Notes under the pieces: model-generated
What the model saw: the letters and a program-made list of their open reading frames with translations, nothing else
What the model was told of the DNA's origin: nothing
Databases searched by the model: none
Source: an uncultured Myxococcales bacterium
Lineage (GTDB): Bacteria; Desulfobacterota; Binatia; UBA1149; SPBQ01
Direction: 5' to 3'
DNA length: 63,346 nucleotides
Assembly (NCBI GenBank): GCA_964478045.1
Contig: CAYZHO010000002.1
Location: 1-63,346, forward strand
Program-made: the position numbers and the translations under genes
Shown here: positions 977 to 30,424 of the stretch, piece after piece
How the letters are laid out: each line of letters begins with the position of its first letter
Position numbering within the stretch: the stretch's first letter is position 1

Positions 977-1075
977 CACCCGAGGATGCTCGGACAAGGC
1001 ACAATGGATTGAGGGAGGACAAAGACAACGTCAAGGAGGAAAGCCGGCGGTGCCGCTCGCCGGTTACGAGGACCG

Positions 1076-3494: not shown

Positions 3495-3498
3495 GTGG

Positions 3499-4113
3499 AT
3501 GCACAGCCCCCGCCCAAAGCGAACGATCAGCGCTCGGCGCGCGGCCGCCGGTTTCTTGCTAGCCCTTCTGCTCTCGGTTCCCGCCTGCACCACGCCCGAG
3601 CAACAGCTGTGGTGGAAGATGACGTTCTTCGACGGCGTTCCACCACCCGGACACGAAAAACTGGCGGAGGAAGAGCGCGAAGAGCGCGAGATGACGCCAG
3701 CGGCTCGGGCACTGGCGGCGCTGCGCGAAGCCAAACACCAAATTTCGCGACATGGCCCGTACGCGCAGAAGAAGTGCTCGCAGTGCCACGCCAGCGAATA
3801 CTCCAATCGCCTCAAAGCCCGGCCGCCGGAGTTGTGCTACCGCTGTCACGAAGTCGAAAGCTTTCCCGGAAAGTACCGGCACGGCCCTTTCCGGGCCGGG
3901 CTTTGCCTGGCTTGTCACGACCCGCATAGTTCGCCGAACGAAAAGCTGCTGCTGGCCGGGCGGGAAGAACTCTGCAGGACGTGCCACGACGCAACGACGT
4001 TCGCCCGTATCGACGAGCACGTCGCGCGCTACGGTGCCGATTGCCTCGCCTGCCACCGGCCGCATGCCGGCCCGCGGCCGAAGATGCTCCGGGAGGATGC
4101 CAAAACGTCGTGA
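3499..4113 (+). CDS. Pentahaem c-type cytochrome, probable lipoprotein
   Basis: Five CxxCH motifs (CSQCH, CYRCH, CLACH, CRTCH, CLACH). N-terminus FLLALLLSVPAC resembles a lipobox. A purine-rich RBS-like stretch (GGTGAGGTGAG) precedes the ATG. Confidence 0.85.
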   Translation: MHSPRPKRTISARRAAAGFLLALLLSVPACTTPEQQLWWKMTFFDGVPPPGHEKLAEEEREEREMTPAARALAALREAKHQISRHGPYAQKKCSQCHASEYSNRLKARPPELCYRCHEVESFPGKYRHGPFRAGLCLACHDPHSSPNEKLLLAGREELCRTCHDATTFARIDEHVARYGADCLACHRPHAGPRPKMLREDAKTS

Positions 4114-6152: not shown

Positions 6153-6253
6153 GCGGTGGTGGCTCATAGCACAATGGCGGCCGGACCCGCGGTTAAGGGC
6201 GAACCGGCCGGCTCGTTGCAGGACGGTTCAGAACAGAGCGTCGGAGGCCAAAA

Positions 6254-7348
6254 ATGAGGCACCGCAGCGAAAGGCGCCCAGGGCAAGCGCGGTATCCGGC
6301 CGGAGGCCGGGTGCTTGCGCGTTCGATCGCGTTGATTGTGACGCTCGCCGCAGCGGCCGCAGCCTGCGCCCCTTCCCGCGCGCCGCGGCCGCCGTGGAAC
6401 CAGCCGGCGGAACACTTGCGCTGGCCGCTTCCGCCGGAGCCGGAACGGATCGCGTATGTTGGAAGCCTGAGCTCGGGCGACGATCTGCCCGCCGCGCGCC
6501 GGTCCCTGGCACGGCTCACCTCATGGATGGCGGGCCGAAAGCCGCGGAACATGGTCAAACCGATCGCTGTCGCCAAGAACTCCCGCGACCTGCTCGTCGT
6601 GGCAGACCCGGCGATCCCTACGGTCCACTTCTTCGACTTGCGCCGCAACCGCTACGATCGTCTGTCGCGCAAGGTCGCTTCCCGCATCTTGTCCCCAGTC
6701 GGAGTAGCGGTGGCTGATGACGGCACCGTGTTCGTGAGCGACTCGGTCAAAGCCAAGGTGTTTGTGCTTCGCGGGCCGGACGAAATCGAGCGAGTAATCG
6801 GAGAGACGGTCCTCCAGCGGCCAACGGGCCTGGCCTTGTCTGCCAGCGGCACGCGCCTGTACGTCGTGGACACCCTAGCGGGACAGGTGGTGGTATTCGA
6901 CCGGGAGGGCAGAGAGATCGGGCGCTTCGGGGCGCGCGGGACGGGCCCCGGATCGCTCAACTTCCCGACCTACGTAGCCGTGGCACCGGACGGCCGCGTC
7001 CTAGTGTCGGACTCCCTAAACTTTCGGGTGCAAGTTTTTTCGCCCGACGGTCGCTACCTCGGGGCTTTCGGCCGGCCGGGCAATGCGGCAGGCACGTTTA
7101 CCCGCCCGAAGGGAATCGGCGTGGACCGCTTGGGGCACGTCTACGTCGTCGATGCCGCTTTCGAGAACGTTCAAATGTTCGATGATCAAGGACACCTGCT
7201 CCTAGCGTTCGGAAGCAGCGGCACGGGCGCTGGCCAGTTTACGCTGCCTGCCGGAATTTGGGTGGACCAGCGCGACGATACGATTTGGGTCGCCGACTCG
7301 TACAACCAACGGGTACAAGCTTTTCGTCTGGTGGGGTACCAACGATGA
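6254..7348 (+). CDS. NHL-repeat beta-propeller lipoprotein
   Basis: GGAGG RBS upstream. Lipobox-like LAAAAAAC. NHL units such as LNFRVQVFSPDGRYLGAFG and FTRPKGIGVDRLGHVYVVDAAFENVQMF. Paralog of 2-976. Confidence 0.85.
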   Translation: MRHRSERRPGQARYPAGGRVLARSIALIVTLAAAAAACAPSRAPRPPWNQPAEHLRWPLPPEPERIAYVGSLSSGDDLPAARRSLARLTSWMAGRKPRNMVKPIAVAKNSRDLLVVADPAIPTVHFFDLRRNRYDRLSRKVASRILSPVGVAVADDGTVFVSDSVKAKVFVLRGPDEIERVIGETVLQRPTGLALSASGTRLYVVDTLAGQVVVFDREGREIGRFGARGTGPGSLNFPTYVAVAPDGRVLVSDSLNFRVQVFSPDGRYLGAFGRPGNAAGTFTRPKGIGVDRLGHVYVVDAAFENVQMFDDQGHLLLAFGSSGTGAGQFTLPAGIWVDQRDDTIWVADSYNQRVQAFRLVGYQR

Positions 7349-9042
7349 AAACGCCGTGCCTGCGACGAATTCTGCCGCTGGTGTGGGCCGCGCTCCTGGC
7401 CGCTACGCCCGCGCCCGCGCAGATCCTCGGAACCAAGCACAACCTGTCGGCCAGCGGCCCTGGACCCATCAAGGCGTTCGGCGAAAACGAGATCTGCATC
7501 TTCTGCCATACGCCGCACAGCTCGGCCGCCTCGACTCCGCTTTGGAATCGCGTGTTGCCGACGCTCGTTTACACGCCGTACTCGAGCTCGACGCTCGAGG
7601 CGAGCACCGGCCAGCCGACCGGCTCCTCCAAACTGTGCTTGAGCTGCCACGACGGAACGATCGGCCTCGGCATGGTGCTCAGCCGCAGCACTCCGATCGC
7701 GGTGACGGCCGAGCTGAGCGGCCGCGCCAAGCTGACGACGGACCTGTCGGACGACCACCCGGTCTCGTTCGTCTACGACTCGGCGCTGGCAGCGGCCGAT
7801 GCGGAGCTAGTGGATCCCGGCTTGCTCCCCTCCCACGTCCGGCTCGACCCGGACGGCCAAATGCAGTGCACGAGCTGTCACGATCCTCACTCCGACCGCT
7901 ACGGCAAGTTTCTCGTTGCCGACAACGTGTTTTCCGCACTGTGCACCACATGCCACGACAAAATCGGGTGGGCGGCCAGCTCTCATGCCACATCGCCGGC
8001 CACCTGGGACGGAACCGGTTTGGATCCTTGGCCCTACACAGACTGGGCGACGGTCGCCGAAAACGGCTGCCTCGGTTGCCACACCTCGCACATGGCCGGT
8101 TCGCCGCAGTGGTTGCTCACGCAAGCGATCGAGGAAGATACGTGTCTTGCCTGCCACGATGGCAGCGTTGCTTCGAAGAACATCGAGGCCGAACTGCGCA
8201 AGCCGTACCGCCACCCAGTGGACGCGCAGAGCGGCGTGCACGACCCGAACGAAGATCCGCTGCTGATGCCGCGACACGTCGAATGCCAGGATTGCCACAA
8301 TCCCCACGCGGCACGGCACCTACCCGCTTCGGCGCCGGCTGCCAGCGGCGCCCTCGCCGAGGTCCCGGGCGTCTCTTCTTCGGGTGGCACGGTCGATCCG
8401 GCCAGTTACCAGTACGAAGTGTGTTTCCGGTGCCATGCCGATAGTGCCAACGTCCCGCCGCCCTCGATCCCGCGGCAGATCCTCGAGCCGAACTTGCGCT
8501 TGAAGTTCGACCTGTCGAATCCTTCGTACCACCCGGTGGAAGGCCCGGGTCGCAACTCTTCGGTTCCGAGCCTGATCGCCCCGCTCACTACTTCGTCCGT
8601 GATCTACTGCACGGATTGCCACGCCAACGACTCCGGTCCTGGCACGGGCGGCACCGGACCGGCCGGACCGCACGGATCCAACTGGGAGTTCTTGCTCGAA
8701 CGCGAGTATCGGACAGCAGACAACACTAGCGAGAGCTATCAGGCCTACGCTTTGTGCTACAAGTGCCATGCCCGCACGAGCATCCTCGCCAACCAGTCGT
8801 TCAAGGAACACAAGAAGCACATCCAAGGGGAGAAGGCCCCGTGCTCAGTGTGTCATGACCCGCACGGGATCAGCATCACCGAGGGAACCCCAGTGAACAA
8901 CACGCACTTGATCAACTTCGACACGAGCATTGTACAGCCCGACCCCAAGACTGGCCGGCTCGAGTTCCAAGACGACGGCACGCGCAAGGGACGGTGTTAC
9001 CTGCGCTGCCACGGCGAGAACCACTCGCCGAAGACTTACTGA
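7345..9042 (+). CDS. Multihaem c-type cytochrome (11 canonical CxxCH plus one CX3CH), secreted
   Basis: The internal ATG at 7345 forms an ATGA overlap with the NHL gene stop and gives the signal peptide MKTPCLRRILPLVWAALLAATPAPAQ. Motifs: CIFCH, CLSCH, CTSCH, CTTCH, CLGCH, CLACH, CQDCH, CFRCH, CTDCH, CYKCH, CSVCH, plus CYLRCH. Confidence 0.88.
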   Translation: MKTPCLRRILPLVWAALLAATPAPAQILGTKHNLSASGPGPIKAFGENEICIFCHTPHSSAASTPLWNRVLPTLVYTPYSSSTLEASTGQPTGSSKLCLSCHDGTIGLGMVLSRSTPIAVTAELSGRAKLTTDLSDDHPVSFVYDSALAAADAELVDPGLLPSHVRLDPDGQMQCTSCHDPHSDRYGKFLVADNVFSALCTTCHDKIGWAASSHATSPATWDGTGLDPWPYTDWATVAENGCLGCHTSHMAGSPQWLLTQAIEEDTCLACHDGSVASKNIEAELRKPYRHPVDAQSGVHDPNEDPLLMPRHVECQDCHNPHAARHLPASAPAASGALAEVPGVSSSGGTVDPASYQYEVCFRCHADSANVPPPSIPRQILEPNLRLKFDLSNPSYHPVEGPGRNSSVPSLIAPLTTSSVIYCTDCHANDSGPGTGGTGPAGPHGSNWEFLLEREYRTADNTSESYQAYALCYKCHARTSILANQSFKEHKKHIQGEKAPCSVCHDPHGISITEGTPVNNTHLINFDTSIVQPDPKTGRLEFQDDGTRKGRCYLRCHGENHSPKTY

Positions 9043-9061
9043 AGAAGCGACGCCAGCACGC

Positions 9062-11944
9062 TTACGCCCAGGGACGCTCGCGCCGCCGCTTCACGGGCTC
9101 GAGCTCGATGCGCGTGCCGCGGTCGTTCATTCCCGGCTCGCCCATGATCATGAGCGGCTGCAAGTGGTAGTAGCCGCCCGCCAACTGGATCGGGTTGAGC
9201 GGGGTTGCAACAATCGACTGGTGGGAGCGCCTGTGCTTGAACTGGTGCGGCTCCCACGCGTGGTAGACCGCCACCTGCCCGGGCCGCATGGACGGCGCGA
9301 TCTTCGCCTCGACCTCGAAGCTGCCCAGGTCGTTTCGAACGCGCACGAGATCGCCGTCTTCGATTCCGCGTTCGGCCGCGTCGCGAGGATGGATGAACGC
9401 TACCGGCCGCCCGCGCTGCAGCCGCAGCATCAGCGGATTGTCGCGCCAGGAAGCGTGGATCGACCAGCGGGTGTGGCCGCCGGTCATCTTGAGCGGATAG
9501 TCGCCGCCGATCGGCGGGTTGTCCTTGTGTACGGGTAGAACCTCACCGAGCTCGCGGTAGAACGGGTGATCGATGTAGAACTGCATCCGCCGCGTGAGCG
9601 TCGGCCACGGCTGCTTGTCGCGCACGTGCCAAGTGTTGGCCGTAATCGTTTCGTTCGGTTCGATGTCGGTGGCGTTTCCGATGTTGACCGGGCTGCTGCC
9701 AAGCGCGGTAAAGCGGGCGAACCCCTTCTCCTTCAGTTCGTCCCACGTCACGCCGCCGAGGTTCGTGTTCACCTCGAGAAGGGCCCGCAGGAACTCTTCA
9801 CCGTTTTCTTCCGTGTAGCGGCCGCCGTATGTCATCCGGTAATAGACTTGGTCGAGCCGGCGCTCTTTGCCGCTACGGTCCCGGAACGTGCGGATCCCGC
9901 GCTGCTTGGCGCGCTTCTCGATGTGCTTCATGAACAGGCAATGGATCGCCCAGTCTGACTTCGCCTCTCCAAGCGGCTCGACGGCTTTCGTCGTAACCTG
10001 GCAGAACGGCGCGTGAGGCGTGGCCCACGTGATGTCGTCGCGCTCGTACCAAGCGGCAGCTGGCAGCACGTAGTCTCCGTACAGTGCCGTCGTGCTCATT
10101 CGCCAGTCGACAACGACGAACAAGTCGAGGCGCGGCAAGAAGTTGTCGATCAGCTCCGGATAGCCCCGCACGCGCCGCAGGAAGTTGCCGCCGACCGAGA
10201 AGAAGATCTTGGGCTCTGTCTCGGGAACGACTTGCCATCCCTTTGCCTTGGCCTCGGCCAAGTACTCGGACATCTCGCGGGGCAAAGAGCGATCCCAGCG
10301 CTTGGCGCTTCCGGTGCGCGCTTGCATGCCGAACTGGTGGAAAAACAGGGGCGACGGCACGAAACCGCCACGCCGGTACTCCTCCCGGGCCTGTTCGACG
10401 AGGAACATCTCCCAGGTCTTCCCCTCGGCCTTTGCCTTTAGGATGGCCGGGGCCTTTTCCACGCCGAGTGCGATCATGCCGAGCTTGAGCGGCATCACGG
10501 GCGCCACTCCAGCCGCCTCGGGCGCTTCGACCGTCAGCCACGGGAAGGCGTTCATCCCCGCTCCTTTCTTGCCAATGTGGCCGCATAGGGCGAGGACGAG
10601 GATCTGCGCCCGCTCCATTTCCATGCCGTGGTAGTACTTCGAGAAGTTCGACTCGGTCATGATCGTCGCCGCGCGCGCTCGCCCGATCATTCGGGCGAGC
10701 TTGCGAATGAGCGACGGCGGCGTGCCGGTCACCTTGGCTGCTTCTTCGGGCTTGTAGCGGGCCAAGTGACGGCGCAGCCGCGCGAACACCGGTTCCACGG
10801 TGACCGGGCCGTCGGCCGTGCGGACCGTGAACTCTCCTTCGAGCGCCGGACGCCGGCCGCCAAGTTCGAGGGAGCGCCGCGGAGCCGGTTCGACGCGGTC
10901 GGCCGCTTCGTCGAAGAAGTAAAAGACGTCGTCCGCACCTCCTTTGGTGAAGTCCCGCTCCCGGAGCAGGAGCCCGTTGTCCTTGCGCACAAGCAGCGGC
11001 AAGTCGGTCTGTTCTCGGACGAAGTCCCGGTCGAAGAGGCCTTCCTCGATGATCACGTGCGCCAGCGACAGCCCAAGCGCCGCGTCGGTTCCCATCTCGA
11101 CCGGGACCCACAGATCCGAATGGATCGACGACGCACTGTAGTCCGGCGCGATCGTGACGACCGTTGCGCCATTATAGCGCGTCTCGGTCAGGAAGTGCGC
11201 GTTCGGAATCTGCGTGTAGATCGGATTGCCGCCCCAGATCAGTACCAAGTCCGAGTAGAACCAATCGTCCGCCGAGCTCGCGTAGCAGATCTTCCCCGTT
11301 GTAACCGCCGCACCGGGATGGTGGTCGCCGATCTCGGCGTTCGCGTCGAGCATGATACTGTCGAGGACGAAGTTGTTGCGGACAACACCGACGCCGTGGC
11401 CGCCGTTCGTAAAGGAGGTGCCGAAGTCCCAGTAGATCGAGCCAGGTCCGTCGGTGACCAGCACGTCGATCATCCGGTCCGCGATGTCGTCGAGCGCTTC
11501 CTCCCAGCTCACCCGTTTCCACCGTCCTTGACCGCGCCGCCCGACGCGCTTGAGGGGGTGCGTGATACGCCCCGGGTCGTACATGCGGTGGCTATAGCAG
11601 CCTCCTTTTTGGCAACCGCGCGGATTGTAGTCGGGAACGTCCGCGTTGGTCTGCGGGTAGATTCCAGCCTGTTCTTCGCGCAGAACCACCCCATCCTTGA
11701 CGTAGACGTTCCAGTTGCAGCCGCGCTGGTACCAGCAGTTAACGTGATGGGTCCCCTTGGCCACGCGGTCCCACTTCCAGCGCTCCCTGTAGACGTCCTG
11801 CCACTTCTCGTAGCGGACGGGCACCGGCGCGCCCGCGTGGGCGAAATCCGCCCGGAGCACCAGCCGCCCGAGGGTAAGCCCGAGTGCAGCCGCTCCGGTA
11901 GCCTGCAAGAACTGGCGGCGAGTGAGTTTCGTGGAATCCGTCAT
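9062..11944 (-). CDS. Type II DMSO-reductase-family molybdopterin oxidoreductase alpha subunit, EbdA/NarG-like, Tat signal (paralog A1)
   Basis: The ATG at 11944 (ATGA overlap with the A2 stop) gives MTDSTKLTRRQFLQATGAAAL. FS0-type motif HHVNC-x5-C-x34-C. Conserved blocks EQTDLPLLVR, WPTLTRRMQFYIDH, GGHTRWSIH. 960 aa. Confidence 0.88.
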   Translation of the reverse strand: MTDSTKLTRRQFLQATGAAALGLTLGRLVLRADFAHAGAPVPVRYEKWQDVYRERWKWDRVAKGTHHVNCWYQRGCNWNVYVKDGVVLREEQAGIYPQTNADVPDYNPRGCQKGGCYSHRMYDPGRITHPLKRVGRRGQGRWKRVSWEEALDDIADRMIDVLVTDGPGSIYWDFGTSFTNGGHGVGVVRNNFVLDSIMLDANAEIGDHHPGAAVTTGKICYASSADDWFYSDLVLIWGGNPIYTQIPNAHFLTETRYNGATVVTIAPDYSASSIHSDLWVPVEMGTDAALGLSLAHVIIEEGLFDRDFVREQTDLPLLVRKDNGLLLRERDFTKGGADDVFYFFDEAADRVEPAPRRSLELGGRRPALEGEFTVRTADGPVTVEPVFARLRRHLARYKPEEAAKVTGTPPSLIRKLARMIGRARAATIMTESNFSKYYHGMEMERAQILVLALCGHIGKKGAGMNAFPWLTVEAPEAAGVAPVMPLKLGMIALGVEKAPAILKAKAEGKTWEMFLVEQAREEYRRGGFVPSPLFFHQFGMQARTGSAKRWDRSLPREMSEYLAEAKAKGWQVVPETEPKIFFSVGGNFLRRVRGYPELIDNFLPRLDLFVVVDWRMSTTALYGDYVLPAAAWYERDDITWATPHAPFCQVTTKAVEPLGEAKSDWAIHCLFMKHIEKRAKQRGIRTFRDRSGKERRLDQVYYRMTYGGRYTEENGEEFLRALLEVNTNLGGVTWDELKEKGFARFTALGSSPVNIGNATDIEPNETITANTWHVRDKQPWPTLTRRMQFYIDHPFYRELGEVLPVHKDNPPIGGDYPLKMTGGHTRWSIHASWRDNPLMLRLQRGRPVAFIHPRDAAERGIEDGDLVRVRNDLGSFEVEAKIAPSMRPGQVAVYHAWEPHQFKHRRSHQSIVATPLNPIQLAGGYYHLQPLMIMGEPGMNDRGTRIELEPVKRRRERPWA

Positions 11945-14793
11945 ACGCGCTCGACCTCCACGGTCGTACCCCGCGGCGTGTGGTGCGGGCCCGCAAACAA
12001 GAAGCGATAGTGAAGCTGCCCGTACTCGGTCATGTGCAGCGCCTTCCAGGGAGAAGGAACGGGTTGCTGGTTGCTCTTCCAATCCTTGAACTGGTGCGGC
12101 TCCCAGGCGTGATAAATGATCAATTGGCCCGGCTGCACGGCCGGACTGATCTTGGCGAGCATCTCGCACGAGCCGACGTCGTTGTACACCCGGACCCGGT
12201 CGTTGTCCCGTATGCCCCGGCGCTTGGCGTCTTCCTTGCTCATGTAGAGCGCCGGCTCACCCCGCTGCAAGCGAAGCATGAGCGGTTCGTCGCGCCAGGT
12301 GGAGTGAATCGACCACCTCGTATGCCCGCCGGTCATTCGCAGCGGATAGTTGCCGCCCGCCGGCGGCGGCTCCTTGTGTACCGGCAACTCCTCGCCAGCT
12401 TCGAGGAACCACGGATGGTCGATGTAAAACTGCATGCGACCGGTGAGCGTGGGCCAGGGTTGCTTGTGCTGTACGAACCACTGGCACGGATAGATGGAGT
12501 CCTCGGGCTCCCAATCGCTGCAAATGTTCGTGTGGGTGCGGAAGGGCCCCAGCGCCTTGATCGGAACCGCTCCCTGCTCGGCCGCCTCTTTCCAAGAGAT
12601 GTAGCCCATCTCGGGCGACTCGCTGGCTGCGATTTCGTAGTAACGCAGGTCGTCGTCCGGATCGAACTCGCCGTCGTGCGACCAGCGGTCGTAAATCCGG
12701 GAAAAGTCGCGCGGGTTGCCGTGAGCATCCGGTACCTTTGAGATACCCCGGGCGCGGGCCTTCTCTTGGAGAATCCGAGCAACATCGCCCCAAATCTTCC
12801 ACTCTGTGCGCGACTCCCCTAGCGGAGGAACCCCCTGCTCGCCGACCATGTAGTACGGCACGTAACTCTGGGCGTACTTGATCCCGCGGCGCTCGTAGTA
12901 CCCAGCCGCCGGCAATACGATGTCCGACTTGAGCGCCGTCGCCGACATCTTGATGTTGACGCCGACGATCAAGTCGCACTTCGGCCACAGGGTCTTTTCG
13001 ATCACCTGAGGCGCAGGCCAGCGCCGCAGTGGATTCACCCTCGTGTGCACGAGGATGCGGGGCCGCTTTTCGCGGCGCGGGAATAACGGAACCCAGTTGT
13101 TCTCTACCGCTTCGTGCATGGCCTCGGGAAGCGGCTTGCCGGGCTTCGGATCGTGATAGCTGGGGTTGTCGACCACCTCGTTCAACCCGCCGTGGTGGTA
13201 CAGGAACATCAGCGCCGGCGTGTAGAGTTTGCTCTTCTCGTAGTCGCGGAAGTACTTGATGTATTCGCGGACGGTCGGCTTGAAGAGCTTGAGCAGCAAG
13301 CGCTGATACCAAGTCGGCTTCACTCCAGAGACCGCCGACTCGATGCTGCTCAACATGTACCACGCACCGATCTTCAGGCCCGTACCGCGGTAGCCGACGT
13401 TTCCCGTCAGCGCGAGAAGCAAGATGATGCCGCGCTGGAATAGGTCGCTGTGGTAATGCTTCATCGACCCCCACGACGCAAACATGTTGACGGCCTTCGC
13501 CCGGGCCATTTCGCGCGCCAACTCCCGGATCGTCTCGGCGCCCACGCCCGTAATACGCTCCACGCGCTCGGGCGTGTAGTCAGCGAGCCGCTTCTTGAGA
13601 TACTCGAACACCGGGCGTACCCGCACCGTCTCCCCGCTTGCCAACTTCACCTCGAAGCGGCCCTCGAGGGCGGGATCGAGATTGCCGAGAGCGAGCGTGC
13701 TGCGCCGGCCGAGCCCCTCGCTGCCGGGGGCCTTGGCCAAGCGACCACCGGCGAGGTCCCACAGGTAGAAGACGTTATCGGCTCCGCCTTTTTTGAGGTC
13801 CGATTCGCGCAGGAAGCGCCGCGTGTCTTCACGCACTAGCAAAGGCAAATCGGTTTGCTCCTTGACGTAGTGCGCTTTGTAGATTCCCTCGTCCACCATG
13901 ACCTTGGCCATCCCCAGGGCCAGGGCCGCGTCGGTTCCGACGCGCAGGTTGATCCATTGGTCTGCGTGGATCGTCGAGGCGTTGTAATCGGGTGCGACGC
14001 TGATCACCTTGGCGCCGCGGTAGCGGGCCTCCCAGAAGAAGTGCGCTTCAGGAATGCGCGTGTACGAAGGATTGCCCAACCAGATGAAGATGAGGTCGGA
14101 TCGGACGAAGTCGTCGGCTGTCCCGTCCGTATTGAAAAGCCCCCACGTCATGATCACGCCGAGCGGCATGTCGCCCACCGTCGCCCAACCGTCGAGCTGG
14201 GTTGCACCAATGTAGTCGAAGAACGACATTTCGCCCGACGTCGCGGCACCGTAGCCGGCATTTGCGGTACCGCTCTCGTGGATGATGCACTCGGGGCCGT
14301 CCTCGCGGATGACCTCGAGCATCTTTTCCGTAATCTCTTCGTAGGCTTCCTCCCAGGTAATGCGCTTCCACTTCCCGGAGCCACGCGGCCCAACCCGCTT
14401 TACGGGATACTTGAGCCGCTGCGGGCCGTACATCACCTGGCTGAAGCAGGCCCCCTTTTGGCAGCCGCGCGGATTGTAGTCGGGCAAGTCGGTCGCCCGC
14501 GCCTTCATGATCGCATTCTGCTCTTCGCGCCAGACGATTCCGTCTTTGATGTACAGAACCCAAGGGCATGCCGAGGCGCAGTTGGCCACGTGGTGCGTCG
14601 CGTTGACGACCTTATCCCAGGTCCACTTCTGCCGGTACACGTCCTCCCAAGACGCATAACCCCGGCCGCCGGTGGCGCCTCGCGCACCGCGCGCTCGCGC
14701 CTTTTGCGGTACGGCCAATCGTAACTGGAGCAACGAGAGGGTCAGTACCGCCGATCCTTTGAGGAACGTGCGCCGTGTCAGCCGATCCTTCAT
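11941..14793 (-). CDS. Type II DMSO-reductase-family molybdopterin oxidoreductase alpha subunit, EbdA/NarG-like, Tat signal (paralog A2)
   Basis: MKDRLTRRTFLKGSAV Tat motif. H-x3-C-x3-C-x34-C (HHVANCASAC...NPRGC). Blocks EQTDLPLLVR, WPTLTGRMQFYIDHPWF, GGHTRWSIH. AAGGAG RBS upstream. Confidence 0.9.
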   Translation of the reverse strand: MKDRLTRRTFLKGSAVLTLSLLQLRLAVPQKARARGARGATGGRGYASWEDVYRQKWTWDKVVNATHHVANCASACPWVLYIKDGIVWREEQNAIMKARATDLPDYNPRGCQKGACFSQVMYGPQRLKYPVKRVGPRGSGKWKRITWEEAYEEITEKMLEVIREDGPECIIHESGTANAGYGAATSGEMSFFDYIGATQLDGWATVGDMPLGVIMTWGLFNTDGTADDFVRSDLIFIWLGNPSYTRIPEAHFFWEARYRGAKVISVAPDYNASTIHADQWINLRVGTDAALALGMAKVMVDEGIYKAHYVKEQTDLPLLVREDTRRFLRESDLKKGGADNVFYLWDLAGGRLAKAPGSEGLGRRSTLALGNLDPALEGRFEVKLASGETVRVRPVFEYLKKRLADYTPERVERITGVGAETIRELAREMARAKAVNMFASWGSMKHYHSDLFQRGIILLLALTGNVGYRGTGLKIGAWYMLSSIESAVSGVKPTWYQRLLLKLFKPTVREYIKYFRDYEKSKLYTPALMFLYHHGGLNEVVDNPSYHDPKPGKPLPEAMHEAVENNWVPLFPRREKRPRILVHTRVNPLRRWPAPQVIEKTLWPKCDLIVGVNIKMSATALKSDIVLPAAGYYERRGIKYAQSYVPYYMVGEQGVPPLGESRTEWKIWGDVARILQEKARARGISKVPDAHGNPRDFSRIYDRWSHDGEFDPDDDLRYYEIAASESPEMGYISWKEAAEQGAVPIKALGPFRTHTNICSDWEPEDSIYPCQWFVQHKQPWPTLTGRMQFYIDHPWFLEAGEELPVHKEPPPAGGNYPLRMTGGHTRWSIHSTWRDEPLMLRLQRGEPALYMSKEDAKRRGIRDNDRVRVYNDVGSCEMLAKISPAVQPGQLIIYHAWEPHQFKDWKSNQQPVPSPWKALHMTEYGQLHYRFLFAGPHHTPRGTTVEVERV

Positions 14794-14836
14794 GACCTAC
14801 TCCTTCCCCTAGTCTCCCGCCTTGGGCTCTCGGCCT

Positions 14837-15904
14837 TTACGAGCGGGCGGGCAGTTTGGCCGGATTCTGTGTGAAATCGGGAAAGATCTGTTCCGGCCAC
14901 TTGTAGACCACGAGAGTGTCGAGGATCTCCGAGCGCTCGCCCCGCCGCACCCGCTCGAGCTCCGCTTGCAGCGTCGCGAGTGCTTCATCTACGCCTGGAC
15001 CGAACAAGCTGCGGAGGTACTCGGTCGGAATGCGCGGCCGGCTGCGATCAGGGTTGCCGTCCGGCCCGATCCGCGGCGGCGCAAGTGGAGGAACGTAGTA
15101 CACGTTCGGCTCGGTGTTGAACTCGGGGTGCAGCGGCAGCGCTACTTTCCACAGCTTCACGAGCTTGTAGATCGGACCGTTCGGATCGTCGAGATAGCCG
15201 ACGAAGCGCAGTCGCCCCGGGCACTGGCGGGCGCATGCCGGCGCCACCCCTTTTTCGAGGCGCGGGAAGCAGAAAATGCACTTCTGCGCGATCTTTCGCT
15301 TGACGTTAAAGTAAATCCGCTTGTACGGGCACGCTTCCATGCAGAACCGGTAGCCCCGGCAACGGTCTTCGTTGATCCGGACAATCCCGTCCTCCTCGCG
15401 CTTTTCGATCGCACCGCGGGGACATGCCTCGAGGCATGCGGGATGGGTACAGTGGTTGCAGATCCTGGGCAGGTAGAAGTAATAACAGTTGGGATAGTCT
15501 CCGGCGCCTTGGTCCTCGTCCCAGTTGGGCCCCCACTCAGGCTTTCTCCCTTGGGGCGCCAAATGTGCTTCCTGGCCTTTGCCCCCGTAGAAAACCTCTT
15601 CATAGTTGAACTGCCAGGCAACGCCGAAGTCTTCCATAGTCGGCAATTTCCCCGGACGCGGTACGCCCTCCCGGTCGAAGCCGCCTCCGGACTTCTCCCA
15701 GTCGCGCGGGGTGCCTCGACCGGGCATGGTGTTTACGACCGTCCACCACATGCCCTCCATTCCTTCCTCGCGCGTCCACAGGGTCTTGCATGCGATCGTG
15801 CAGGTCTGACAGCCAAGGCACTTGTTGAGATCGAAGACCATGGCGAGTTGATGGGCACTGCCCGTCGCGCCTTTTCTCCGGCGTCGCTGGGTTACGTCGG
15901 CCAT
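14837..15904 (-). CDS. NarH/EbdB-like iron-sulfur (beta) subunit, four Cys clusters (B1)
   Basis: CLGCQTCTIAC, CNHCTHPACLEAC, CRGYRFCMEACP and CIFCFPRLEKGVAPACARQCP Cys groups. 355 aa. GGGAGGA RBS. Very similar to 29343-30404. Confidence 0.92.
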   Translation of the reverse strand: MADVTQRRRRKGATGSAHQLAMVFDLNKCLGCQTCTIACKTLWTREEGMEGMWWTVVNTMPGRGTPRDWEKSGGGFDREGVPRPGKLPTMEDFGVAWQFNYEEVFYGGKGQEAHLAPQGRKPEWGPNWDEDQGAGDYPNCYYFYLPRICNHCTHPACLEACPRGAIEKREEDGIVRINEDRCRGYRFCMEACPYKRIYFNVKRKIAQKCIFCFPRLEKGVAPACARQCPGRLRFVGYLDDPNGPIYKLVKLWKVALPLHPEFNTEPNVYYVPPLAPPRIGPDGNPDRSRPRIPTEYLRSLFGPGVDEALATLQAELERVRRGERSEILDTLVVYKWPEQIFPDFTQNPAKLPARS

Positions 15905-15966
15905 CTGGTCCTCCCTTCGGCGCGCGCCCCGGCCTCCCGCGGGGGCAGCAGCCGGCGCGAGCTGTC

Positions 15967-15980
15967 CAAACGAACGTTTG
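15967..15980. promoter_or_regulatory. Inverted repeat CAAACG-AA-CGTTTG in an AT-rich divergent intergenic region (candidate operator)
   Basis: Read directly from the sequence. It lies in the most AT-rich stretch of the 15905-15998 spacer, between the B1-A2-A1 operon and the kinase gene. Confidence 0.3.
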
Positions 15981-15998
15981 TTTGTTTTTAGCTGCTAG

Positions 15999-17192
15999 TT
16001 GCCTGTATTGCAAGGGATTTCTCCGATCAGCGCACGCTGCAGGGTCGTTTTGCGTTGGCTCGAACAGCCCTTTAAAGAAGTCGAGCGCCTGCCGGGTGGC
16101 CGCCCAACGAGCGGAGAACAAGCAACATTGAGCGAACGGAACGCGCCTCGAACGGACGAGCAGATTCTCGCGGGCATCGAGCAGTTTCTGCGGGCCCGCC
16201 TGCCTGAGCGAAGCGGGCTCAAGGTCACCGGGCTCAAAAAGCACACGGAAGGATTTTCGCTGGAAACCTACTCGTTCGACGTCGAGTGGCACGAAAACGG
16301 GGGCAGGCGCACCGAGAGGCTCGTGGTTCGCAAGGAGCCGCCCGCGGGACTCCTCGAACCCTACGATCTCGAGCCGCAGTACCGCGTCCTCGCCGCCTTG
16401 GCCGACACCCCCGTGGTAGCCCCGCGCGTGCTGTGGTTCGAATCGGACCCGTCTTTTCTCGGTGCTCCCTTCTACGTCATGGAGTGGGTCGAGGGGGAGG
16501 TCCCGCTTCCGATCCTCGACGAAGACGGGGGGCTGCCGATTCGCGACGATGCGGTTCGCGAGAGCGTCGGGCGTGACTTCGCGCGGATTCTCGCGGCAAT
16601 CCACACCGTGGACTGGCGCGCCAAGGAGCTTGACTTCCTCGGAGCTCCCCGCGACGGGCGGGATGCGGCCGAGCGCGCGGTCGACACGTGGGCGGGCTAC
16701 ATCGAGCGGGCCCGTCTCGGCCCCTTGCCGATGCTCACGTACGCGCTGGGATGGCTGCGGCGGCATTTGCCGCGCGAGGCACCCATCACGCTCGTCCACG
16801 GCGACTACCGTACCGGCAACTTCATCATGCGCGCAGGCCGGATCGTCGCCTTCCTCGACTGGGAGATGGTCCACCTGGGCGATCCGATGGAAGACGTGGC
16901 CTGGAGCGTCTCGCGAATTTGGCGCGGTGAATCTGGGCTGGCCGGCCACTTGATCGAACGAGAGCGGCTGTTCGAGTGGTACCGCGAAGCCGGCGGCCAC
17001 GAAGTCGACGAGGAACGCGTGCGTTTCTATGAAGTTCTCTCGGGCGTCAAGATGGCCGCGATCATGCTCACCGGGATCAAGGCTTGGCACGACGGGCGAA
17101 CCCGTGACATGCGCATGGGATTCTTCGATCAGCAGTTGGCGGGAATGCATGCGATCATCGCGGACGCGATGGGCTTGATCCAACTTCCATAG
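15999..17192 (+). CDS. APH-family phosphotransferase (aminoglycoside/choline-kinase-like kinase fold)
   Basis: Catalytic-loop motif HGDYRTGNFIM (HxDxxxxN) and FLDWEMVHLGDPMEDVAW. The start is uncertain. The listed start is a TTG at 15999. An in-frame TTG at 16128 preceded by GGAGAA is an alternative. Confidence 0.75.
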   Translation: MPVLQGISPISARCRVVLRWLEQPFKEVERLPGGRPTSGEQATLSERNAPRTDEQILAGIEQFLRARLPERSGLKVTGLKKHTEGFSLETYSFDVEWHENGGRRTERLVVRKEPPAGLLEPYDLEPQYRVLAALADTPVVAPRVLWFESDPSFLGAPFYVMEWVEGEVPLPILDEDGGLPIRDDAVRESVGRDFARILAAIHTVDWRAKELDFLGAPRDGRDAAERAVDTWAGYIERARLGPLPMLTYALGWLRRHLPREAPITLVHGDYRTGNFIMRAGRIVAFLDWEMVHLGDPMEDVAWSVSRIWRGESGLAGHLIERERLFEWYREAGGHEVDEERVRFYEVLSGVKMAAIMLTGIKAWHDGRTRDMRMGFFDQQLAGMHAIIADAMGLIQLP

Positions 17193-17214: not shown

Positions 17215-17709
17215 ATGAACGTACTCGACCTTGACGAGATGCTTTCGGGAATCGTCCGTACGCTGGACGAACAAGTCGGGCCGCACGTAGCGGCCGGCCC
17301 CGCACGGGCCCAGCTGTACGCCTCTCTCGACCTGCTGAACAATCTCGCATCGAAACTCGAATGGAAGCGCGAACTCTTGCAGGCGGAGGGCGACGGCATC
17401 GCCGCCGCGCTACAGCAAGTCGCCGATGTCCTGTCGGGAACCCCCAGCCTTCCCCAACCGCTGGCTACGCTCTCGGAAGAAGCGCAGCGGCTTGCTTCGA
17501 GCCCCGACCGCACGGACGATCCGCTGGCCTGGTGCCGGCGTTGCAACGAGGTTCTCGAGCGCGCGATCGTTGCCCTCGACGAAGCAAACCTCGACGAACA
17601 GGCTGCGGCTAGTGCCCGAGCGGCAATCGAAGGCTACCTGGTCAATCAGACCATCCGGGATTCCATGTTCATCAAGCCAATGATGCTGAAGAAAATCTCG
17701 CAAGGATGA
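17215..17709 (+). CDS. Hypothetical helical protein (164 aa), co-oriented with the kinase
   Basis: Compact ORF 22 nt after the kinase stop. Codon usage is consistent with neighbouring genes. No motif recognised. Confidence 0.5.
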   Translation: MNVLDLDEMLSGIVRTLDEQVGPHVAAGPARAQLYASLDLLNNLASKLEWKRELLQAEGDGIAAALQQVADVLSGTPSLPQPLATLSEEAQRLASSPDRTDDPLAWCRRCNEVLERAIVALDEANLDEQAAASARAAIEGYLVNQTIRDSMFIKPMMLKKISQG

Positions 17710-17731: not shown

Positions 17732-18673
17732 ATGATCAGCGCCACCGACATGATCAGCCCGCAGGACGATCGCCGCCACGCACCAGGACCGGAGTCGCTG
17801 CCACTGTGGAGCGAAAGCTATTGGTTCCCCGTCTACGACCCCAAGACTCAGACGGGGGTGGTCACGCGCATCGGCATTTTGCCCAATCAAGGGCGGGCGA
17901 CCTTGTGGATGTTCATCTCTCACGAGGGGCGAATCGTCCACAACGCCACCGACTTGAACTGCCCGCTGCCCCAGGGAGACATCGACGAACTGCGGGTCGG
18001 CAACGTCACCTACCGCTGCCTCGAGCCGCTGCGCAAGTGGCGGCTCACTTACGACGGTGGCGACTACGGCATGGACCTTCTGTGGGAAGCGATATGCCCC
18101 GTCTACCAGTACCCGCCTCCGCCGGGGACGACCGTGGACCAGGCCGCGCGCCACATCGAGCAGTCGGGCCGGGTGCGCGGCACCGTCCGGGTCGCTGGCA
18201 AGGACGTTTCGGTCGACTGCTTCGGTCACCGCGACCATTCCTGGGGAGGCGAGCGAGACTGGTCGAAACTGGCGACCTGGACCTACATCTCGTGTGAGGT
18301 AGACGAGCGCCTCAGCTTCAACGCCGTACAAATCTGGTTTGGGCCGGAGACGAGTTTCAAAGTCGGATTCTTCTGGGACGGCCAAGACGTGATGGGTCTT
18401 TCGGACCTCGGGGCGACCATCCACACGAACGAAGATCGCACCGTGCAGCGCGGCGCCTCGCTGTGGCTGGTCAACGAGAAAGGACAGCGTTACGAGGTGC
18501 GCGGCGAAGTCATCGACGTCTGCCCTGTGCGGATCGGCCCCACGCAGGTAAACGACGCCATCACCAAGTTCCAGGTTGGCGACCGGGTCGGCTATGGGAT
18601 TATCGAGTACGGCTACCAGACCGACGCCGCCGGCAAGCCGGTCGGTGTCGAACCGGCACTAGGACTCGGCTGA
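17732..18673 (+). CDS. Hypothetical protein (313 aa), beta-rich, HRDHSWGGERDW motif
   Basis: ORF 22 nt after the previous gene. Motifs SESYWFPVYDP and GHRDHSWGGERDWS resemble uncharacterised families often adjacent to APH-like kinases. No confident family assignment. Confidence 0.5.
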   Translation: MISATDMISPQDDRRHAPGPESLPLWSESYWFPVYDPKTQTGVVTRIGILPNQGRATLWMFISHEGRIVHNATDLNCPLPQGDIDELRVGNVTYRCLEPLRKWRLTYDGGDYGMDLLWEAICPVYQYPPPPGTTVDQAARHIEQSGRVRGTVRVAGKDVSVDCFGHRDHSWGGERDWSKLATWTYISCEVDERLSFNAVQIWFGPETSFKVGFFWDGQDVMGLSDLGATIHTNEDRTVQRGASLWLVNEKGQRYEVRGEVIDVCPVRIGPTQVNDAITKFQVGDRVGYGIIEYGYQTDAAGKPVGVEPALGLG

Positions 18674-18704: not shown

Positions 18705-20048
18705 TCAGCCGCCGGCGCCCGCCGGTGCCTGTGCGGACTCGAGATCGTTGTACGCCGTGGCGGTAAAGAAGTCTCCCCGCTTCTTGCAGCCACGAACGGT
18801 TACGAGGAACTGGTGCGAATCCGCGGGAATCGTGCCCTCGAACAGCACGGTCATGCGCGTACCGTCGATCTTCTCCTTGACCGTGAGATCGCTGTCCTGC
18901 GGCTTCTCCTCCATTCCCGGTCCTCTGGACAGCAGGACCACCGGCTTTTCTCCTTTTTTCCACCGCCATACGTAGGCCGGCTCTCCCTTCGTCCCTAGGT
19001 CGAACGTGCGCTCGCGCTGGCCGAGCGCCCAGTAGACCTCCGCCTGGGGACACGTGTTCTCGCCGTCGTCCCAACTGATCAAGAGGCCGATCCGCTGGCC
19101 TTCCCGGACCGCCCGGACCGAAATCGGCTCGTAGTGCTGCATCCAGCCTCCGCGAATGGCCAAGCGATCGAGTTCAACGGGAGTGGCCGACTTCCAAACC
19201 GGTGCGCCGACGTCGTCCGCCAGCTTGCCCGCCACCACTGGAACCGCGCCTCGGCTGGCCTGCTTTACGTCGCGGCGCTCCTTGGCAAAGGACAGTACGT
19301 AGTGCGCGATCGCCCAGCGTTCCTCCGGGGTCATGACCTCTTTCCAAAACCCCGTCATCGGGGTGCCGTCGAGCCCGGTCAGAATGCGCATGTAGATGTC
19401 TTCCGGTTTGTTGCCCCCCTTGTAGACCCCCACCTCGAAACTGCGAGGGTGCAAGGGCTGCCCCCAGTTGTCGAGCATTTCTTCGGGCTTCTTTCCGTCG
19501 CCCTTGCCGGTTTTGCCGTGGCACTGATCACACCCGACTTTGACGTACAGCTCGGCACCCCGCTTGAGTTCCTCGGGGGTCACCGGCGGCTCGGGCGGCG
19601 CTTTTTCTCCCGGCGGGACTTCGTAAAGCTCGAACCAGCTTCCTTCTTCTCCTTCGGGCCCGCCGAGCGTCTTGATGTAGGCAACCACGTCACGAATCGC
19701 TTGCTCGCCGAGATGGCGGAACGACGGCATCCCCGTACCCGGCATGCCGTTGGTGACCGTCCGGATGAGGTCTTCGTCGGTCGGAAGCTCTCCGGTCTGG
19801 GTCGAGCGAATCTTGAAGAGCCCCGGCCGAAAATCACGCGGGCGCGGATCGAAGAGCGCCGCGCCGGGACCATCGCCCCAACCTTTCGAACCGTGGCAAA
19901 ACGCGCAGTGGTGCTCGTAAATCGCCGCCCCAGCTTTCGGATCGCCTACCTCGGCGCGCGCGGCCGCGGCAACGAGGACGCCGAGAATCAGCGCCGCAAA
20001 CGCGCCCGCTAGCAACGGATGACGTTTCGCCCCAACGTTCTTCGTCAT
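18705..20048 (-). CDS. Dihaem c-type cytochrome fused to a C-terminal EB_dh-like (EbdC-related) domain, secreted
   Basis: The ATG at 20048 (ATGA overlap with the chaperone stop) gives MTKNVGAKRHPLLAGAFAALILGVLVAAAARA. Two class-I-like haem sites (CAFCHG, CDQCHG). The C-terminal ~180 aa align by eye with the gamma subunit at 30425-31075 (VREGQRIGLLISWDDGENT versus CHDGSKLYIRLEWKDPTEN). Confidence 0.75.
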   Translation of the reverse strand: MTKNVGAKRHPLLAGAFAALILGVLVAAAARAEVGDPKAGAAIYEHHCAFCHGSKGWGDGPGAALFDPRPRDFRPGLFKIRSTQTGELPTDEDLIRTVTNGMPGTGMPSFRHLGEQAIRDVVAYIKTLGGPEGEEGSWFELYEVPPGEKAPPEPPVTPEELKRGAELYVKVGCDQCHGKTGKGDGKKPEEMLDNWGQPLHPRSFEVGVYKGGNKPEDIYMRILTGLDGTPMTGFWKEVMTPEERWAIAHYVLSFAKERRDVKQASRGAVPVVAGKLADDVGAPVWKSATPVELDRLAIRGGWMQHYEPISVRAVREGQRIGLLISWDDGENTCPQAEVYWALGQRERTFDLGTKGEPAYVWRWKKGEKPVVLLSRGPGMEEKPQDSDLTVKEKIDGTRMTVLFEGTIPADSHQFLVTVRGCKKRGDFFTATAYNDLESAQAPAGAGG

Positions 20049-20725
20049 TTCTTGACCGGTCCCTCCGTCGAGATGAGATAAGTCATATCGGCGCGGCAGT
20101 ACGTATCGGCGAGCTCGATCATCGCACGCCAAAAGGGATGGGCGTCGATCTTTGCGAGCTTCGCAACCGCCTTCGGCAACCACCGCGCCGGGTGCCGTGC
20201 GAGGAAGTCGCGCGCCGCTCGCCGCAGGGACCCCGGATCCTCCCCGTTGCGCAACGCTTCGACTTCTTTGAACGTGAGGAAATGCAGGAACTCCAATTCT
20301 GCCGTCAAGTGATCCGGCAGGTCGCGTTCCTTGGAAGAAATCGTAAGTCCAAAGTACCGGTAGAAGCGCAGGGCTTCCTCCATCACTCGCTGCCGGTCTC
20401 CACCCCAAACGCCGCCGTACAGAGGCACTGGAGGGCCACCCATGCCAACGTCGAACAGGCCGACGTAGGCCGACTGGAACTCGTCGTAGTCTTCGTCGAC
20501 CTTTTCGAGTTCGGGCCACAAGCGGTCGACCCCCTCTAGAGAATACGGAAGGTGAGCGATCACCGAGCGCGCGGCCGGGATCATCTCTCCCGACCGGGCG
20601 AACTCGTGGAAGTCCTGCCACGGAAAACTCAGCCACGAAGCCAGATACTGGTAGAGCGTGCTGCGCGCCGCCGCTGCCCGCTCGGGGCCTTCGCGAATCG
20701 AATCGATGGTTGCGATCTCGGTCAT
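20045..20725 (-). CDS. TorD/NarJ/EbdD-like redox-enzyme maturation chaperone
   Basis: 226 aa. Family-like pattern: YVGLFDVG..GPPVPLYGG, ALRFYRYFGL, LPDHLTAELEFLHFL. GAGGGAGAA RBS. Confidence 0.8.
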   Translation of the reverse strand: MTEIATIDSIREGPERAAAARSTLYQYLASWLSFPWQDFHEFARSGEMIPAARSVIAHLPYSLEGVDRLWPELEKVDEDYDEFQSAYVGLFDVGMGGPPVPLYGGVWGGDRQRVMEEALRFYRYFGLTISSKERDLPDHLTAELEFLHFLTFKEVEALRNGEDPGSLRRAARDFLARHPARWLPKAVAKLAKIDAHPFWRAMIELADTYCRADMTYLISTEGPVKK

Positions 20726-20745
20726 GTTCTCCCTCTTGTTCGACG

Positions 20746-23559: not shown

Positions 23560-23573
23560 CGCCAGTCCCTCTC

Positions 23574-26429: not shown

Positions 26430-26464
26430 CGTCTCGCTCCCTATTGTGCCTTCGCGCCGGCTTG

Positions 26465-29329: not shown

Positions 29330-29342
29330 GGCCGCACCCCGC

Positions 29343-30404: not shown

Positions 30405-30424
30405 GGCTTACTCCTTCCGGCGGA

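Follow-up and report, generated by a model that had tools for sequence, protein, structure and literature searches.

The 63,346-nucleotide stretch analysed here (contig CAYZHO010000002.1, hereafter the window) carries on its minus strand three long open reading frames (ORFs) with a high GC content at third codon positions, which encode, in the order B1, A2 and A1, one iron-sulfur (FeS) beta subunit and two catalytic alpha subunits of the type II dimethyl sulfoxide reductase (DMSOR) family. It is rather probable that the three genes form one transcription unit and that their products build two separate hydroxylases of the steroid C25 dehydrogenase (S25DH, EC 1.17.99.7)/ethylbenzene dehydrogenase (EBDH) branch, which would share beta, gamma and delta subunits and serve in the oxidation of sterol or isoprenoid side chains. 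A previous sequence-only reading of the window had placed the genes correctly as to coordinates, strand and order: B1, the first gene of the operon, spans 14837-15904 (355 amino acids), A2 spans 11941-14793 (950 amino acids) and A1 spans 9062-11944 (960 amino acids).

The assignment of the three products to the type II family is supported by profile scores and by conserved residues. B1 reached 517.5 bits against TIGR03478, the type II DMSOR beta model (cut-off 480.7). It contains four NarH-type Cys groups, which fits a beta subunit with four FeS clusters, and its N-terminus has no signal peptide. The type II alpha model TIGR03479 was matched over its full length by A2 (976.0 bits, E = 1.8e-293) and by A1 (961.9 bits, E = 3.4e-289), these scores being, like those of all seven alphas of the window (843-976 bits), just under the curated cut-off of 984.75. 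Both alphas start with a twin-arginine translocation (Tat) motif, LTRRQFLQA in A1 and LTRRTFLKG in A2, in agreement with the alpha Tat motif (S/T-R-R-x-F-L) of Supplementary Table 3 of PMC7411048. D207 of A1 and D208 of A2 align with D223 of EbdA, a ligand of molybdenum, and this Asp column is invariant in 7/7 window alphas. The His and Cys ligands that fall in the N-terminal motif of the FeS site FS0 are present in both proteins.

The two alphas belong to different FS0 classes, as the sequence-only reading had noticed. A1 carries HHVNCWYQRGC, i.e., H-x3-C-x5-C, and A2 carries HHVANCASAC. The latter had been read as H-x3-C-x3-C; the x3 spacing between the Cys residues holds, whereas the His had to be reassigned. 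Indeed, the first His of HHVANC is invariant while the second position is variable, being Q, G, A or S within the A2 clade and I, L, T and others across the wider class, so that the motif is better written H-x4-C-x3-C. Within the window, A1, A5 and A7 share H-x3-C-x5-C (N-C-W-Y-Q-x-x-C), A2, A3 and A4 share C-x3-C, and A6 has C-x4-C. Among the matches listed with a readable motif, the x5 spacing was found in 118/118 for A1 and the x3 spacing in 108/108 for A2; when the paralogues of the window and near-identical cluster members are added, the totals are 121 (x5) and 112 (x3). The spacing follows the clades in a tree of 162 sequences, and at the level of sequence the two spacings are thus markers of deep clades. 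A1 and A2, which are 42% identical, fall in different deep clades, A1 being placed in another superclade than S25dA1-4.

Comparison with characterised enzymes gives these classes a biochemical anchor. Alphas from Sterolibacterium metagenome-assembled genomes (MAGs) have N-termini that match alpha1-4 of S. denitrificans (PMC7411048, Supplementary Table 3) and carry HTRANC[CI]AAC; hence the characterised C25 hydroxylases are in the FS0 class of A2, A3 and A4, with which they share H-x4-C-x3-C. Among the paralogues of the window, A4 is the nearest to these MAG alphas (about 50% identity). A2 is also about 50% identical to S25dA-type alphas, but it forms a clade of its own. The best match to a solved structure was EBDH of Aromatoleum aromaticum (EbdABCD, PDB 2IVF), with 685 bits for A1 and 621 bits for A2. 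The FS0 of EbdA, HLNICWPQGSC, has the same x5 spacing as A1, and the two proteins have in common the pattern C-W-x-Q-x-x-C and the Asp ligand of molybdenum. However, the scores against the NCBIfam EbdA equivalog model, 697 and 653, are far below its cut-off of 2000, and the gene context in the window points to sterol or isoprenoid substrates and not to alkylbenzenes. PcrABCD, SerABDC, DdhABC and NarGHJI share with the window genes the alpha/beta architecture, Tat export and a dedicated chaperone, and A2 matches PcrA (594 bits) nearly as well as it matches EbdA. These enzymes are nevertheless reductases with one alpha per operon, and the H-x3-C-x3-C of PcrA and NarG coincides exactly with neither the A1 nor the A2 class.

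The limits of the unit are well defined. On its 5' side, B1 is separated by a 223-bp divergent region from a kinase gene on the plus strand; on its 3' side, a convergent plus-strand gene for a multihaem cytochrome (7258-9042) ends 19 nt from the A1 stop codon. Given these two neighbours, the unit consists of exactly B1, A2 and A1. The gap between B1 and A2 is 43 nt and the spacer between A2 and A1 is -4 nt, the stop codon of A2 and the start codon of A1 sharing, as had been read before, the minus-strand ATGA at 11941-11944. Shine-Dalgarno sequences precede each start codon (GGGAGG for B1, AAGGAG for A2, and GGAGG 10 nt upstream of the ATG of A1). The start of A1 was set at the ATG at 11944 and not at the upstream GTG at 12169, because TRRQFL follows directly and the orthologue in the related locus L082 is called likewise. 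Such an overlap would couple the translation of A1 to that of A2. Of the earlier proposal that one beta is co-translated with two non-identical alphas, the common encoding is therefore confirmed, while co-translation is what we infer from the overlap. The cytochrome gene next to A1 closes a plus-strand run (143-9042) of NHL-repeat beta-propellers, a TPR-AhpC/thioredoxin-like protein and several multihaem c-type cytochromes with paired CXXCH motifs, the nearest part of which also occurs in L082.

Neither a gamma nor a delta gene was found within the B1-A2-A1 unit, which consequently lacks the co-encoded gamma and chaperone of a complete holoenzyme operon. A gamma upstream of B1 was not missed either, since only the 223-bp intergenic stretch lies there before the kinase gene; besides, the sensitivity was adequate, as a hidden Markov model (HMM) built from 48 gamma sequences does find gamma in relatives. 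A consensus scan of 8800-16200 returned no promoter-like site, and the 7 terminator-like sites in this region (5.8 +/- 2.4 expected from shuffled sequence) are all within coding sequence. The scan is uninformative except in that there is no obvious break between B1, A2 and A1; a separate promoter and terminator between A2 and A1, which would have divided the unit, thus did not appear, no terminator-like site standing out above chance. The divergent region between B1 and the kinase gene contains a candidate operator, the 18-bp palindrome CAAACAAACGTTCGTTTG (15967-15984), which is perfect to near-perfect and lies 63 nt upstream of the ATG of B1. This is its single site in the window, matched on both strands, whereas 0.05 sites would be expected by chance, and it is kept at the same place in the related loci L082 and L044.

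The missing subunits are encoded elsewhere in the window. According to tblastn and HMM scans of its 63 kb, the window contains 7 alpha, 2 beta, 1 gamma and 1 delta genes, spread over 9062-38289. With such numbers, subunits must be shared, at least within the window. The only gamma, a haem b subunit with an EB_dh domain (30425-31075, minus strand; PF09459, E = 2.9e-28), scores 143.4 bits against TIGR03477, below the cut-off of 169.85. The only delta, a type II DMSOR chaperone (20045-20725, minus strand), scores 163.4 bits against TIGR03482 (cut-off 152.3). Both belong to a second cluster, locus 2, and sit 4-15 kb from the B1-A2-A1 unit, in line with the earlier statement that no gamma or chaperone gene lies on this transcript. 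The beta subunit of locus 2, beta2, is 74% identical to B1 (beta1), and the two may be interchangeable. The EB_dh domain of the gamma begins about 10-20 residues in, and no recognisable signal peptide precedes it; both features are shared by most gammas of about 30 related loci, including those in clusters with S25dA-type alphas. This absence suggests that gamma would be exported by hitch-hiking on a Tat-targeted alpha and not via Sec.

Sharing of this kind has a precedent in Sterolibacterium denitrificans, where there are 8 alphas to only 6 beta/gamma sets and 2 chaperones (PMC6153880). Its native S25DH1 consists of alpha1 (SDENCHOL_20805), beta3 and gamma3, alpha1 being encoded apart from beta3 and gamma3 (PMC6016249, PMC7411048). 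Alpha1-3 work with beta3gamma3, alpha4 works with the 99%-identical beta4gamma4, and one chaperone, SdhD, serves the alphas of S25DH1-4 in trans (PMC6016249). For alphas to share beta, gamma and delta is therefore established biochemistry. S25DH1-4 resemble the window system in belonging to the hydroxylase branch of the type II DMSOR family, in having more alphas than beta/gamma sets, and in having alphas encoded away from their partner beta-gamma with the chaperone in trans (PMC6016249, PMC6153880). Unlike S25DH, the window combines one beta with two alphas of different deep clades that overlap by 4 bp in a unit devoid of gamma, and its host is of an uncultured Binatia/Myxococcota-like lineage and not a betaproteobacterium.

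In the proposed mechanism, transcription would start from the 223-bp divergent region, shared with the unit formed by the genes for the kinase, a 164-aa ORF and a phosphosteroid-lyase-like protein. Each alpha would be loaded with molybdenum bis(pyranopterin guanine dinucleotide) and FS0, aided by the single delta chaperone, would bind its own copy of beta (beta1, possibly also beta2), would leave the cytoplasm through its own Tat signal, and would be completed by the haem b gamma. The outcome would be two enzymes, A2-beta-gamma and A1-beta-gamma, made from shared electron-transfer parts, a scheme that by analogy would match native S25DH1. Of the two assemblies that the sequence-only reading had envisaged, the one with two alpha-beta complexes borrowing gamma and chaperone is hence the likely one and fits the S. 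denitrificans precedent (PMC6016249, PMC7411048). Jointly with the divergently encoded kinase and lyase, the two enzymes probably serve in the oxidation of sterol or isoprenoid side chains, which they would hydroxylate in a water-dependent, O2-independent manner.

The divergent unit suggests a link to a known cascade. In S. denitrificans, cholesterol is hydroxylated at C26 without O2 in four steps: S25DH hydroxylates the tertiary C25, 25-hydroxysteroid kinase (25-HSK) phosphorylates the product, a lyase eliminates phosphate, and steroid C26 dehydrogenase (S26DH) hydroxylates the allylic C26 (PMC7411048, PMC8449060, PMC11061730). In the window, the first gene of the divergent unit (16128-17192, plus strand; start set by alignment to L082) encodes an APH-family kinase (PF01636, E = 6e-38), a candidate hydroxy-isoprenoid or steroid kinase. 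The second (17215-17709, plus strand) encodes a 164-aa protein without any Pfam match, with orthologues in L082, L044 and L051. The third (17732-18673, plus strand) encodes a DUF7065/DUF7064 protein (PF23213 and PF23212). In a phmmer search, residues 28-173 of the latter matched PDB 9FZN, entitled '25-phosphosteroid lyase', with E = 3.8e-5, and a family profile made of this protein and six homologues from the related loci matched 9FZN with E = 5.9e-79 over chain positions 5-353 of 362. By full-length homology, the protein can thus be assigned at the sequence level to the 25-phosphosteroid lyase (25-PSL) family (PDB 9FZN, 9G2I, 9G4C). This lyase was still called unknown or putative in papers of 2021 and 2024, and a literature search found no paper describing entry 9FZN. 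S26DH1-3 are the second molybdenum hydroxylases of the cascade; they act after kinase and lyase and are about 38% identical to S25dA (PMC7411048, PMC6153880). The window resembles this pairing in that its two alphas, at 42% identity, are accompanied by a kinase gene and a 25-PSL homologue. In S. denitrificans, however, a separate beta and gamma belong to each S26DH, and a lyase candidate was not found near the kinase gene when the kinase was identified (PMC8449060), whereas the window has all these genes in one pair of divergent operons of about 10 kb. Owing to its S25dA FS0 class, A2 would be the likelier hydroxylase of a tertiary, C25-type carbon; owing to its EbdA-type class, A1 would be the likelier hydroxylase of the pi-activated (allylic, C26-type) carbon delivered by kinase and lyase. 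This assignment of steps, which may hold, is the weakest part of the explanation.

The unit was then compared with 83 related loci, whose ORFs were classified against the proteins of the window; the close relatives are labelled Candidatus Dadabacteria, Binatia, Myxococcales or Deltaproteobacteria. A2 followed by A1, with the same FS0 split, was found in L001, L002, L008, L028, L060, L082 and L083, so that 8/10 A2-clade loci, window included, have the pair. As to the remaining two, the contig of L061 ends soon after A2, and L063 has A2 without A1. Identities to the window orthologues are 65-86% for A2 and 61-83% for A1 and co-vary across loci, while A1 and A2 are far more distant from each other; hence the pair is old and co-inherited. 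L082, an independent NCBI assembly of about 86% identity, has the gamma-less beta-A2-A1 order with the 4-bp overlap, as well as the divergent kinase-lyase unit and the convergent cytochrome gene. L083 (ENA), whose contig breaks off within the beta gene, has the same beta-A2-A1 order and 4-bp overlap. Between the window and L082, the ratio of nonsynonymous to synonymous substitution rates (dN/dS) was 0.059 for B1, 0.072 for A2 and 0.101 for A1; all three genes are under strong purifying selection. In the distant relatives L001, L002, L028 and L060, a gamma gene is directly upstream, giving gamma-beta1-A2-A1, and L061 is arranged likewise up to A2. From this distribution of gene orders, the loss of gamma from the unit is specific to the lineage of the window. 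The synteny thus bears out the alpha pair as conserved and not as a recent rearrangement, which was the doubt left by the sequence-only reading, while the absence of gamma is confined to this lineage.

Gene order around the pair also varies. In L044 (about 80% identity; 13590-14841), the palindrome is followed directly by the A1 orthologue, the beta1-A2 block being absent; this block is therefore an insertion or deletion between close relatives, and A1 need not be encoded right after a beta gene. L060 (8240-14780) has gamma, beta1, A2, a lyase-like gene (365 amino acids) and A1, and L033 (9986-19975) has an A2-like gene, a gene of about 1.9 kb, an A1-like gene, a kinase and a lyase-like gene (366 amino acids), both of these more distant MAGs having the parts in a single direction. 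The genes for kinase, 164-aa ORF and lyase-like protein travel together in L082, L044 and L051. Kinase and/or lyase genes adjoin alphas of the A1 clade or of the x4-FS0 sister group in L015, L028, L033, L044, L060 and L082, and in L051 they are beside clusters of the locus-2 type. In L001 and L002, gamma-beta-A2-A1 is followed by genes for an FAD oxidoreductase, acyl-CoA dehydrogenases, ChsH1/ChsH2-type hydratases and Ltp2-type thiolases, all of them hallmarks of steroid side-chain degradation.

The premise of the sequence-only reading, that type II operons run alpha-beta-(delta/gamma) with a single alpha, proved incomplete. The ebd operon does have the order alpha-beta-gamma-delta with one alpha. 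Clusters with S25dA-type alphas in MAGs, however, have beta before alpha and run gamma-beta-alpha-delta on one strand (L043 and L067; L071 and others lack only delta). A single alpha is not the rule either: a Sterolibacterium sp. MAG (L058, 242-6317) has two tandem S25dA-type alphas 296 bp apart, and S. denitrificans, as said above, has more alphas than beta-gamma sets (PMC6153880).

Several points weigh against two hydroxylases with shared subunits acting on sterol or isoprenoid side chains. To begin with, we infer co-transcription, subunit sharing and substrates alike from sequence. Distant relatives keep gamma in the operon, and its loss here could mean a changed exit for electrons and not borrowing; further beta, gamma and delta genes may also lie outside the 63-kb contig. 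A2 is in a clade that is sister to the S25dA/A4 clade and is not orthologous to S25dA1-4 of S. denitrificans. The alphas of S26DH (alpha5-7) could not be placed among the x5, x4 and x3 classes, which leaves the C25/C26 division between A2 and A1 putative. Indeed, a homologue search with A6 returned no named Sterolibacterium protein, a regular-expression search of all fetched proteins for alpha5-7-like N-termini (Supplementary Table 3, PMC7411048) returned one unrelated ORF only, and a scan of metagenome contigs with degenerate DNA encoding the alpha5/alpha6 Tat peptide returned only an unrelated Tat-signal protein and no molybdoenzyme. As for the divergent unit, a profile of the kinase homologues from the loci matches 3ATS and 9FSG, two generic structures of the APH family, about equally well (about 1e-66 to 1e-69); 9FSG is entitled 'aminoglycoside phosphotransferase-like protein', and its record does not say whether it is 25-HSK (S. 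denitrificans WP_154717265). The lyase-like protein taken alone matches 25-PSL weakly (26 bits), the strong match requiring a profile with closer relatives.

The most serious competing explanation, which we nevertheless regard as unlikely, is that A1 and A2 are parallel isoenzymes, performing the same first hydroxylation on different side-chain substrates with shared beta, gamma and delta, and not consecutive steps of a cascade. In S. denitrificans, several alphas that rely on the same beta-gamma indeed serve for different sterols (PMC6016249), the window has seven alphas, three of which locus 2 strings behind one gamma-beta, and the class assignment of S26DH was not obtained. However, S25DH1-4 are 72-82% identical to each other (PMC6016249), whereas A1 and A2 are at 42%, in different deep clades and with different FS0 spacings, and the pairing of A2 with A1 has been kept over a long divergence, often beside kinase and lyase genes. 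With so low an identity and so long-kept a pairing, complementary functions fit better than redundant ones.

It is improbable that the alpha-beta modules work independently of gamma and pass their electrons to the multihaem cytochromes of 143-9042 or to a dihaem cytochrome c (18705-20012). Perchlorate reductase PcrAB likewise uses a c-type cytochrome, PcrC. In both the window unit and L082, gamma is absent and multihaem cytochrome and NHL genes are convergent to A1, and the gene for the dihaem cytochrome c that closes locus 2 is conserved. Against this, the orthologous operons of distant relatives (L001, L002, L028, L060, L061) keep gamma directly upstream of beta1, beta1 is highly similar to the gamma-associated beta2 (74% identity), and the cytochrome genes are on the other strand, their adjacency being seen only in close relatives.

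The other assembly raised by the sequence-only reading, alpha-alpha'-beta, in which one beta would bridge or alternate between the two alphas and possibly channel an intermediate, we consider very improbable. It is supported solely by the 1:2 gene ratio and by the coupling of A2 to A1 in translation. Against it, each alpha has retained a Tat signal of its own, a full set of FS0 ligands and the Asp ligand of molybdenum. In the EBDH structure of Kloer et al. from 2006 (PDB 2IVF), the subunits are reportedly present 1:1:1 and one end of the FeS chain of beta is said to face FS0, an arrangement that argues against a beta bridging two alphas. Moreover, the kinase and lyase steps are ATP-dependent and cytoplasmic whereas the alphas are periplasmic (PMC7411048), so that direct channelling makes no sense. 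The gene orders of L044, where A1 stands behind the palindrome with neither beta nor A2 between, and of L063, with A2 alone, also argue against such an assembly. Finally, although the absence of the beta1-A2 block from L044 (80% identity) and the loss of gamma relative to distant relatives show the region to be evolutionarily labile, a recent non-functional rearrangement or an assembly artefact is scarcely credible and already largely refuted, since two independent assemblies, L082 (NCBI) and L083 (ENA), agree with the window in the order beta-A2-A1 and in the 4-bp overlap, L082 agrees with it further in having the divergent kinase-lyase unit and no gamma gene, dN/dS is 0.06-0.10 and all catalytic motifs are intact.

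Returning to two hydroxylases that share beta, gamma and delta, a more far-reaching version can be put forward tentatively. In it, the pair of divergent operons of about 10 kb would be a compact, self-contained O2-free module for the hydroxylation of an unactivated primary carbon: A2 would hydroxylate the tertiary carbon, kinase and lyase would turn the tertiary alcohol into an alkene, and A1 would hydroxylate the allylic methyl group, with one shared beta and with gamma and delta in trans. The S25dA-class and EbdA-class alphas behind one beta would then be the ancestral and widespread way of encoding the cascade in uncultured Binatia/Myxococcota-like bacteria. The conserved, translationally coupled pairing of these two alpha classes behind one beta appears to be undescribed, as does its position beside kinase and lyase genes, in uncultured lineages and, in the window, without gamma; a literature search on Binatia/Binatota with S25DH or EBDH found no paper describing such clusters. 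Biochemical work on the O2-independent hydroxylation of sterol and isoprenoid side chains has essentially been confined to one organism, S. denitrificans, whose genes for both molybdenum hydroxylases, kinase and lyase are scattered. The same parts occur in uncultured lineages labelled Binatia, Myxococcota and Deltaproteobacteria, and in the window they are condensed into one regulated unit, with two deep-clade alphas and a single, presumably shared electron-transfer subunit. Were the division of labour between A2 and A1 true, the FS0 spacing would be a simple marker for separating two hydroxylase types in metagenomes, a compact expressible gene set would be at hand for biocatalysis, e.g., 25- or 26-hydroxylation, and anaerobic turnover of sterols or isoprenoids would seem more widespread than cultured isolates indicate. 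As the principle of subunit sharing is already known, the gain is incremental and not conceptual.

Locus 2 (18705-35227, minus strand) shows that the arrangement of a beta followed by several alphas occurs twice in the window. It begins with a MarR-family regulator (34727-35227) and the alpha A6 (31695-34730, 1011 amino acids), whose FS0 is H-x3-C-x4-C, followed by a cytochrome b561-like membrane protein upstream of gamma (31066-31758; PF01292, E = 2.4e-10), gamma, beta2 (29343-30404; TIGR03478, 526.8 bits), A5 (26465-29329, x5 class), A4 (23574-26429, x3 class), A3 (20746-23559, x3 class), delta and the dihaem cytochrome c. One gamma-beta is thus followed by three tandem alphas, which belong to two FS0 classes. 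Several related loci, among them L010, L016, L044 and L051, have the same gamma-beta-A5-A4(-A3)-delta order, and L036 has it in reverse orientation. The seventh alpha, A7 (35455-38289, x5 class), is on the plus strand. The dihaem cytochrome c (18705-20012, minus strand; PF13442, PF00034) is the last gene of locus 2; it matches PDB 6H5L_B with E = 5e-45 and has a C-terminal extension. A gamma hidden in its C-terminal half was considered and rejected, BLASTP against gamma having given no similarity and Pfam no EB_dh match.

The b561-like protein, which also resembles Ni-hydrogenase cytochrome b, overlaps the start of gamma by 10 nt, and a b561-like gene is beside gamma in L009, L014 and L020 as well. 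It hints at an exit of electrons to the membrane (quinone), in contrast to EBDH and S25DH, which are soluble. Immediately adjacent to the hydroxylase cluster, the window encodes a GT21 glycosyltransferase, a YdjC-like deacetylase, a B12-binding radical SAM protein and an LPG-synthase-TM protein (38402-42325 and 47629-48606), a set which we take to resemble hpnI, hpnK, hpnJ and hpnL of hopanoid side-chain (cyclitol ether) biosynthesis. Further along, downstream of a MacB/HlyD/OEP efflux set (49876-54289), a 2283-aa ORF on the minus strand (56383-63234) has SpvB, TcdB-middle, FG-GAP and RHS-repeat domains and is Tc-toxin-like or RHS-like.

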